DNA from: an uncultured bacterium
GTDB lineage: Bacteria; Babelota; Babeliae; Babelales; RVW-14
Direction: 5' to 3'
NCBI GenBank assembly: GCA_963759805.1
Contig: CAVXAT010000001.1
Location: 128,001 to 192,000, forward strand
DNA: 64,000 nucleotides
This document shows, in pieces, positions 32,463 to 33,236 of this stretch. The notes beneath the pieces were generated by a model that made no database searches, was not told where the DNA came from, and saw only the letters and a list, made by a program, of their open reading frames with translations. The first letter of the stretch is position 1, and the number at the start of each line of letters is the position of its first letter. The translations under genes and the position numbers were made by a program.

Positions 32463-33236
32463 TTAACATGTTTCCAGCTTTAATTTTTTAAACTCTGATA
32501 CAAAATCATCTACTTCATTATTCAGATCGGACACAAAATTGTCTAATTCTGCTTTTAGCCAAGGAACAAAATCATAAAATTCTTCTCTGAGCTTGGATAC
32601 AAACGTTCTAAATTCTTCTTTTGAAATCCAAAGATTGAACTTTGTAATATCAATGAAGTTTATTTCCAATATATCTAAATCTTCCACTTTTATACCGCCA
32701 ACCTTGGCGTAGTACTTATTATCCAGAATTTTTTCTTCATTTTCAAACCATTTAATTGCTAAAACCATTGCTGTTAAAAATATTCGGTAAAATGAAAATT
32801 GATTAAAGGCATTTGGGATTCCTGCTTTATCGATAAACCTATTAACATATATAAGTGCTATTACATAACACGAAGGGTCTTGGTTTGTGTATTGGATAAA
32901 ACGATCTAGAAATTGCTTTGGCTTGATTGAGGCGATTGTTCTTGGCAGCGGAAGGAATACTCGGATAAACGCCGGAATACTGGAAACATCAATTTGATCT
33001 ATTTCCTGAAGTGGTTGTTGCTTGTCATCTTTTAAAATAACAATCATTGTTATAATTTTTTTTAAGATTAAATCAATTAATTTTGTCTCTTTTTTAGTAT
33101 AAAATATTGGATATTGAAATTCAGGATTTGTATCTTCATACTGCTGATTAGCATTCATAGGATGTAGGTAAGATATTCCTGCAAAAATAAGACCAAACCA
33201 TAAATAAATTCGTGATGTAACTGTTTTATAAAGCAT
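32463..33236 (-). CDS. Secreted eukaryotic-type cyclin (PHO80/PCL/P-type cyclin box)
   Basis: Signal-like N-terminus; FLDRF...YVIALIYVNR...YRIFLTAMVLAIKWF...NKYYAKVGGI...L..LE..F. Confidence 0.82.
   Translation of the reverse strand: MLYKTVTSRIYLWFGLIFAGISYLHPMNANQQYEDTNPEFQYPIFYTKKETKLIDLILKKIITMIVILKDDKQQPLQEIDQIDVSSIPAFIRVFLPLPRTIASIKPKQFLDRFIQYTNQDPSCYVIALIYVNRFIDKAGIPNAFNQFSFYRIFLTAMVLAIKWFENEEKILDNKYYAKVGGIKVEDLDILEINFIDITKFNLWISKEEFRTFVSKLREEFYDFVPWLKAELDNFVSDLNNEVDDFVSEFKKLKLETC

Follow-up and report, generated by a model that had tools for sequence, protein, structure and literature searches.

The stretch of DNA analysed here (the window; 64,000 nucleotides, positions 128,001 to 192,000 of contig CAVXAT010000001.1 in assembly GCA_963759805.1) belongs to the genome of an uncultured bacterium, which we refer to as G000, and carries the gene of a cyclin, P0001 (32463..33236), on its minus strand, where all of the features of this gene and of its two neighbours lie. 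The reading frame is open from 33236 to 32463 over 257 amino acids, exactly at the coordinates of the original prediction, and the plus frame at this place is full of stops. The PF08613 Cyclin profile matched residues 99-202 (32631..32942) with an E value of 2.2e-16 and 61 bits, the cut-off being 21, and the structural alignment to Pho80 also supports this cyclin box; the Cyclin_N profile reached 21.4 bits, which is below its cut-off of 23. The pattern from which a PHO80/P-type cyclin had originally been proposed is present in the translation as the NKYYAKVGGI motif at residues 173-182 (32691..32720) and as 'LE..F' at L190-E191..F194. The predicted structure (mean predicted local distance difference test score 87.9) has a single cyclin box of five helices, aligns to Pho80 over model residues 46-224 and is nearer to Pho80, Pcl and cyclin Y than to the cyclins A, B, T and H. 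Both the hidden Markov model search and the structural comparison, on which the identity of the protein hinged, were positive and, by profile and predicted fold, P0001 is a P/PHO80-type (group II) cyclin and a member of PF08613. This family also covers the group II cyclins of eukaryotes (yeast Pho80 and Pcl10; PDB 2pk9, 4krc; plant P/U-type cyclins; TgPHO80; trypanosome CYC2; cyclin Y), from which P0001 differs in being a bacterial gene with a signal-like start and no cyclin-dependent kinase (CDK) found in its genome, in having an Asn and a two-residue insertion at the position of Pho80 Asp136 and Pcl10 Asp376, and in its long tail. The tail is modelled as an acidic amphipathic C-terminal helix (residues 206-256; 32469..32621) and is common only to the P0006/P0013 orthologue group.

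P0001 is a native gene of a Dependentiae/Babelota bacterium, a group that is described as protist parasites in the accessible parts of PMC4776705, PMC4378268 and PMC6561590. It is intron-less and lies midway along a contig of 359,914 bases in the 1.5-Mb genome. Its GC content is 30%, lower than in 99% of the 959 long frames of G000, whose mean is 37.7%. Two further copies were found in this genome, one on contig C10, also with a predicted export signal, and the other a signal-bearing fusion of ankyrin repeats and a cyclin on contig C5 (L003; 44271-45380). Among 261 genomes of the phylum, PF08613 matched in 10, eight of which belong to a single family (f1; 8 of its 35 genomes), where 20 matches are spread across three genera; the other two genomes gave a sub-threshold match interrupted by stops and a fragment of 88 residues at the end of a contig. 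No match was obtained in 14 control genomes. A profile that was built from the bacterial copies matched in 13 of the 261 genomes, some of its weak matches covering the N-terminal part only, and added two cyclin-Y-like genes (G149, G150) as well as three far-diverged candidates in G017, a genome of another family. By eye, the cyclin-Y-like set comprises L016:116-1752, L159:644-1489, L160:657-1505 and L011:1423-1686 in G139, G149, G150 and G160, and it is probably a separate capture. In G149, three cyclin genes, one of which is broken by a stop, are clustered amid other signal-bearing genes (L163; C13:917-4042).

The homologues of P0001 are overwhelmingly eukaryotic and P0001 is nested among eukaryotic cyclins in the trees, which agrees with the eukaryotic descent that was originally claimed for it. 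In a first tree of the best 150 of 4,046 proteins from an exhaustive search, unnamed proteins grouped with the genome-placed bacterial copies (42 rows including duplicates, support 97). A more careful tree of 40 rows comprised 12 of the main bacterial group, three of genus g11 and 25 others that spanned the first tree. The main bacterial group was split off from all other rows in 98% of the 200 bootstrap trees (97/70); the three rows of g11 fell in two other places, while a single origin for all 15 bacterial rows was not rejected (approximately unbiased test, p-AU 0.054). The nearest outside row was P0066, a cyclin of the ciliate Blepharisma (98/92), which in a quick tree of 53 rows fell inside the bacterial group. 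Because of the long branches, the mostly unnamed eukaryotic rows and the unrooted tree, a ciliate donor may be taken as a lead only. Since the family is wide in eukaryotes and very patchy in bacteria, the transfer would have run from eukaryote to bacterium, and P0001 was likely acquired from a protist. Giant viruses also carry P-type cyclins (Sylvanvirus, Bodo saltans virus), and the identity of P0001 to its four best viral matches is just 14-24%.

The signal-like N-terminus of the original prediction was recovered as a predicted signal peptide at residues 1-26 (33159..33236), which ends with LHP before Met27. The prediction was made using our own charge and hydropathy heuristic, i.e., a basic n-region followed by an uncharged hydrophobic stretch, and in the model this part is a helix at residues 3-21 followed by a low-confidence linker. 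Among the homologues, from which 10 rows (duplicates, fragments and one very long branch) had been removed, the rule was positive for 17 of 19 genome-placed copies, for 11 of 19 bacterial-group members without a genome placement, several being cut gene calls, and for 5 of 122 other rows. A small residue and a Met follow the hydrophobic stretch in 14 of the 17 signal-positive copies, a count that includes one false case (L001), in which they lie inside the stretch. The same junction is found in 83 of 323 signal-bearing soluble proteins of G000, compared with 20-32 in eleven control windows, with a Pro directly before the Met in 11 of the 83, and in 9 of 15 signal-bearing ankyrin proteins (of 18 ankyrin frames overall). 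LHP-Met27 fits this habit of G000, as a small residue with Met is common there. The three G017 proteins (L152:1462-2697, L161:723-1820 and L162:498-1619) likewise combine a signal and Met with a far-diverged cyclin-like part; they had no Pfam match, and a profile comparison of two of them gave 74%. A cut before the Met would leave a mature protein that starts with Met like a host cytosolic protein, and a literature search on Met directly after a predicted signal cut found nothing. As for the route, three secretin genes and two T2SSF genes are present in G000, coding for parts that are also used by type IV pili, and profile searches of this genome for VirB4 and for FlhA/SctV gave no match. In Babela, type II secretion is the sole system reported as detected in the accessible part of PMC4378268, and outer-membrane vesicles are also mentioned in that of PMC6561590. 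The export of P0001 would presumably continue past the periplasm into the host.

Cyclins of this kind are apparently not confined to one phylum. When 185,579 prokaryote genomes were scanned by motif, there were 17 matches: three copies that were already known, one new cyclin, one contaminant and 12 unrelated proteins. The new cyclin (L175, in G261) lies 90 bases before mutS, and because nearly all of the taxon-named relatives of this mutS are from Chlamydiae, its phylum would appear to be chlamydia-like. In a sample of this phylum, PF08613 matched in 6 of 401 genomes; five of them (G261, G588, G631, G420 and G609) hold six clean genes (L182-L186 and L188), and the sixth match has stops. The genes around these cyclins include those for adenylate kinase, OsmC and tail-specific protease; in the tree, the cyclins do not group with the P0001 clade. 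By our rule only one of the six has a signal-like start, and G261 has a gene of the FlhA/SctV family.

The residues that would face the kinase are largely retained. Lys162 in helix 3 (32751..32753) is a Lys in 37 of 38 bacterial rows and an Arg in one, and Glu191 in helix 5 (32664..32666) is a Glu in 36 of 38; we take both to be CDK contacts from K266 and E295 of cyclin A. Likewise, we assume Pho80 Asp136 to be an Asp that binds kinase arginines and count its Pcl10 counterpart as Asp376, a numbering whose offset uses an assumed length. According to the accessible part of PMC9815767, Pcl10 Asp376 contacts Arg132 of Pho85. Four residues past the Lys (K+4), an Asp stands in 34 of the 38 bacterial rows, in 120 of the 122 other rows and in all six chlamydia-like copies. 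In P0001, the loop reads KWFENEEK, with an Asn at K+4 and two extra residues: in the alignments, either N166 or E168 falls in the Asp column and two inserted Glu follow N166 (E165-N166-E167-E168; 32733..32744). This Asp is a feature of activation and not what defines the PF08613 family. Because it is kept while the three residues preceding it vary freely in the bacterial cyclins, the family looks as if it were selected for CDK activation; P0001 itself may be a weakened or retuned copy, a decoy, or a gene on its way to loss.

In line with the earlier statement that bacteria have no CDKs, no CDK-like kinase was found in the eight cyclin-bearing genomes, and a Pkinase search of G000 gave no match. 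At E 1e-20, a CDK profile matched in one of the 261 genomes, G070, which is not among the eight, and the best match there was a viral-looking cyclin-kinase fusion. The sister copies of P0001 are under purifying selection, with a core ratio of nonsynonymous to synonymous substitution rates of 0.23-0.33 in four pairs of cyclin copies. On balance, P0001 is probably an exported cyclin of likely protist origin that would bind and retune a host CDK in the manner of a viral cyclin. A protist cyclin would have been captured by a Dependentiae bacterium, and its product would leave by Sec export and then by type II secretion (or vesicles). In the host it would bind a Pho85/CDK5- or CDK1-like kinase and alter its activity outside the host's own control, affecting G1 or nutrient-linked growth decisions and keeping the host as a good nursery. 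The general mode of the family would be CDK activation via the conserved Asp without T-loop phosphorylation, with P0001, which has Asn166 there, probably a weakened or retuned activator. The accessible part of PMC4097832 states that T-loop phosphorylation is not required in Pho85 and Cdk5, and we suggest that group II cyclins were taken because their kinases can work without this activating step. The likeliest effect concerns G1 and nutrient-linked growth, since protist and plant P-type cyclins act there: a Toxoplasma PHO80-type cyclin with TgCrk2 drives G1 (PMC5510908), trypanosome CYC2 is needed for G1 exit and plant P-type cyclins tie division to nutrition (PMC4643991), as far as the accessible parts of these papers go. 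In the light of these sources, the special tie to phosphate signalling that had been proposed was not sustained; phosphate sensing is a yeast specialisation, and nothing in the P0001 data points to it.

Several points weigh against an exported CDK-binding cyclin. A signal peptide delivers a protein only to the periplasm, and the Pro at position -1 of the likely cut of P0001 is atypical. When an Asp is sought within K+4..K+6, it is present in 37 of 38 bacterial rows and P0001 is the sole exception; moreover, the homologues were chosen by cyclin likeness, which biases the set toward conserved motifs. The absences recorded for G000 are soft, the genome being 88.7% complete. The core substitution ratio of 0.23-0.33 comes from pairs to which P0001 does not belong; it is 3 to 8 times that of three housekeeping neighbours (0.04-0.08), and another exported protein gave 0.30. 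Additionally, the orthologue of P0001 in G149 has an in-frame stop and a G150 copy (L009) is without a signal-like start, so cyclin copies do decay.

The change in the loop invites two other explanations. An exported P0001 that binds a host CDK without switching it on, competes with the host cyclins and damps the kinase, e.g., so as to stall division, would account for Asn166 in place of the Asp that contacts the kinase arginines, with Lys162 and Glu191 kept and two Asp-bearing paralogues in the same genome. However, Glu165, Glu167 and Glu168 could substitute for the Asp, three other copies with loop insertions keep a shifted Asp, and a single instance gives no sign of selection for the Asn; we consider such a decoy unlikely. 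It is still less likely that the family is an effector family and P0001 a copy drifting to loss. The lost Asp, the stop in the G149 orthologue, the low GC content and the frameshifted transporter and RtcB genes in the same window agree with decay, but P0001 retains a full-length frame, a signal-like start, intact core motifs and a confident model, and P0006 and P0008 of its subgroup keep the Asp. Reuse of the cyclin fold independently of CDKs, as a general scaffold for binding like ankyrin repeats, whether in the periplasm, at the surface or in the host, is improbable: the fusion of one paralogue to ankyrin repeats, the three far-diverged, predictedly exported G017 proteins without a Pfam match and the long unique C-terminal helix of P0001 would suit it, but the CDK-facing Lys, Asp and Glu persist in copies just 22-38% identical to P0001, in each of the six second-phylum copies and, judged by eye, also in the G017 proteins. 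An artefact, in which DNA of a eukaryote or giant virus was placed in the bacterial genome during assembly or binning, is so improbable for P0001 as to be refuted for practical purposes, although such contamination exists in these collections: the intron-less gene has bacterial neighbours at distances of 21 and 24 bases, midway along a 360-kb contig, and its homologues on three G000 contigs and in seven related genomes group together. Two such contaminants were met. One is a cyclin (L177:1219-1650) that can be read through in the ciliate code alone and lies on a contig of 2.6 kb in a bacterial assembly. The other is the G070 cyclin-kinase fusion (L155:1510-3456, contig C113), which shares with three more kinases two contigs of a Dependentiae assembly; these contigs resemble giant-virus DNA that was binned there.

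For an exported cyclin that acts on a host CDK, there is a close viral parallel. The P-type cyclins of giant viruses and the v-cyclins of herpesviruses are likewise encoded by a parasite, and their action on host CDKs is presumed or has been shown; the bacterial family differs in that it is made in a bacterial cell with two membranes to cross and has spread by duplication to at least 20 copies within one bacterial family. Cyclomodulins, too, are made by bacteria and change the cell cycle of the host, but CDT, Cif and CNF are enzymes acting upstream of CDKs, and we know of no cyclomodulin of this kind that is a cyclin homologue. To our knowledge, cyclins are regarded as a eukaryotic and viral property. 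The nearest effector comparators, as far as the accessible parts of the sources describe them, are the ankyrin, F-box, RING and Ulp1-like proteins of Babela (PMC4378268), the signal-bearing proteins of Chromulinavorax (PMC6561590) and the eukaryote-like domains of Legionella (bioRxiv 10.1101/350777), with which the cyclins share a host-derived domain, a predicted signal peptide, lineage-specific expansion, relaxed selection and type II secretion as the likely route; the target of a cyclin would, unlike theirs, be the core cell-cycle kinase itself. The word 'cyclin' (other than in 'cycling') is absent from the main texts of PMC6561590, PMC7542358, 10.1101/350777, PMC9803151, PMC11696984, PMC4776705 and PMC4378268 and from two supplements of PMC4776705. 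A literature search found no paper on bacterial cyclins, although a domain table of the Legionella genus (bioRxiv supplement), which was outside this search, may list one. The bacterial cyclins form an expanded and apparently undescribed family, to which the cyclins of a second phylum of intracellular bacteria are independent counterparts. We put the chances at about even for a wider reading, in which protist-dwelling bacteria of at least two phyla captured group II cyclins several times and fitted them to their own export routes (a Sec signal with type II secretion for Dependentiae; a route without a Sec signal for the chlamydia-like group) as phosphorylation-independent switches of host CDKs, activators and decoys coexisting as paralogues; these would be the first bacterial cyclins and the counterpart of the viral ones. 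If true, this would be a direct hijacking of the cell cycle, gained more than once by protist parasites and undescribed for bacteria in the literature found. For Dependentiae, which are known mainly from genomes, it would also be one of the earliest effector mechanisms described in concrete terms.

The gene upstream of P0001 encodes a TLC-family nucleotide transporter (33258..34565; PF03219, E 5.8e-14), so the original prediction was right in placing such a gene directly upstream on the same strand. The gap from its end to the start of P0001 is 21 bases, no terminator-like site was seen there, and co-transcription is possible. A functional tie is weak because this same-strand arrangement was seen at P0001 only: in G149 and G150, a different cyclin paralogue adjoins a transporter tail-to-tail, and the remaining copies have no transporter within 1.5 kb on either side. 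A second nucleotide transporter gene of the window is in three pieces due to frameshifts (39754-41217), and another split one lies on contig C3. Downstream, 24 bases past the stop of P0001, there is a gene for a Fic-domain protein (31692..32438); no Fic gene was seen beside the other cyclin copies.

The window also encodes FtsZ, FtsA and ABC transporters, as well as a further eukaryote-like gene for a RING-H2-type zinc finger protein (2998-3516). An Archease gene is followed by RtcB in two overlapping, frameshifted frames (45771-47930). Three very large proteins are encoded in a row at 48564-59765; two of them have Methyltransf_FA (PF12248) repeats near the end and the third had no match in a Pfam search. 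By eye, toxin-antitoxin-like pairs (HicAB-, HEPN/nucleotidyltransferase-, RelE- and AbiE-like) occur around P0001 at 22720-24691, 35381-36683 and 41577-42879. The approximately 16 kb from a NUDIX gene to the split transporter have no counterpart at that place in G149 and G150. The cumulative GC skew turns from falling to rising at about position 42000 of the window, as it does near a replication origin.
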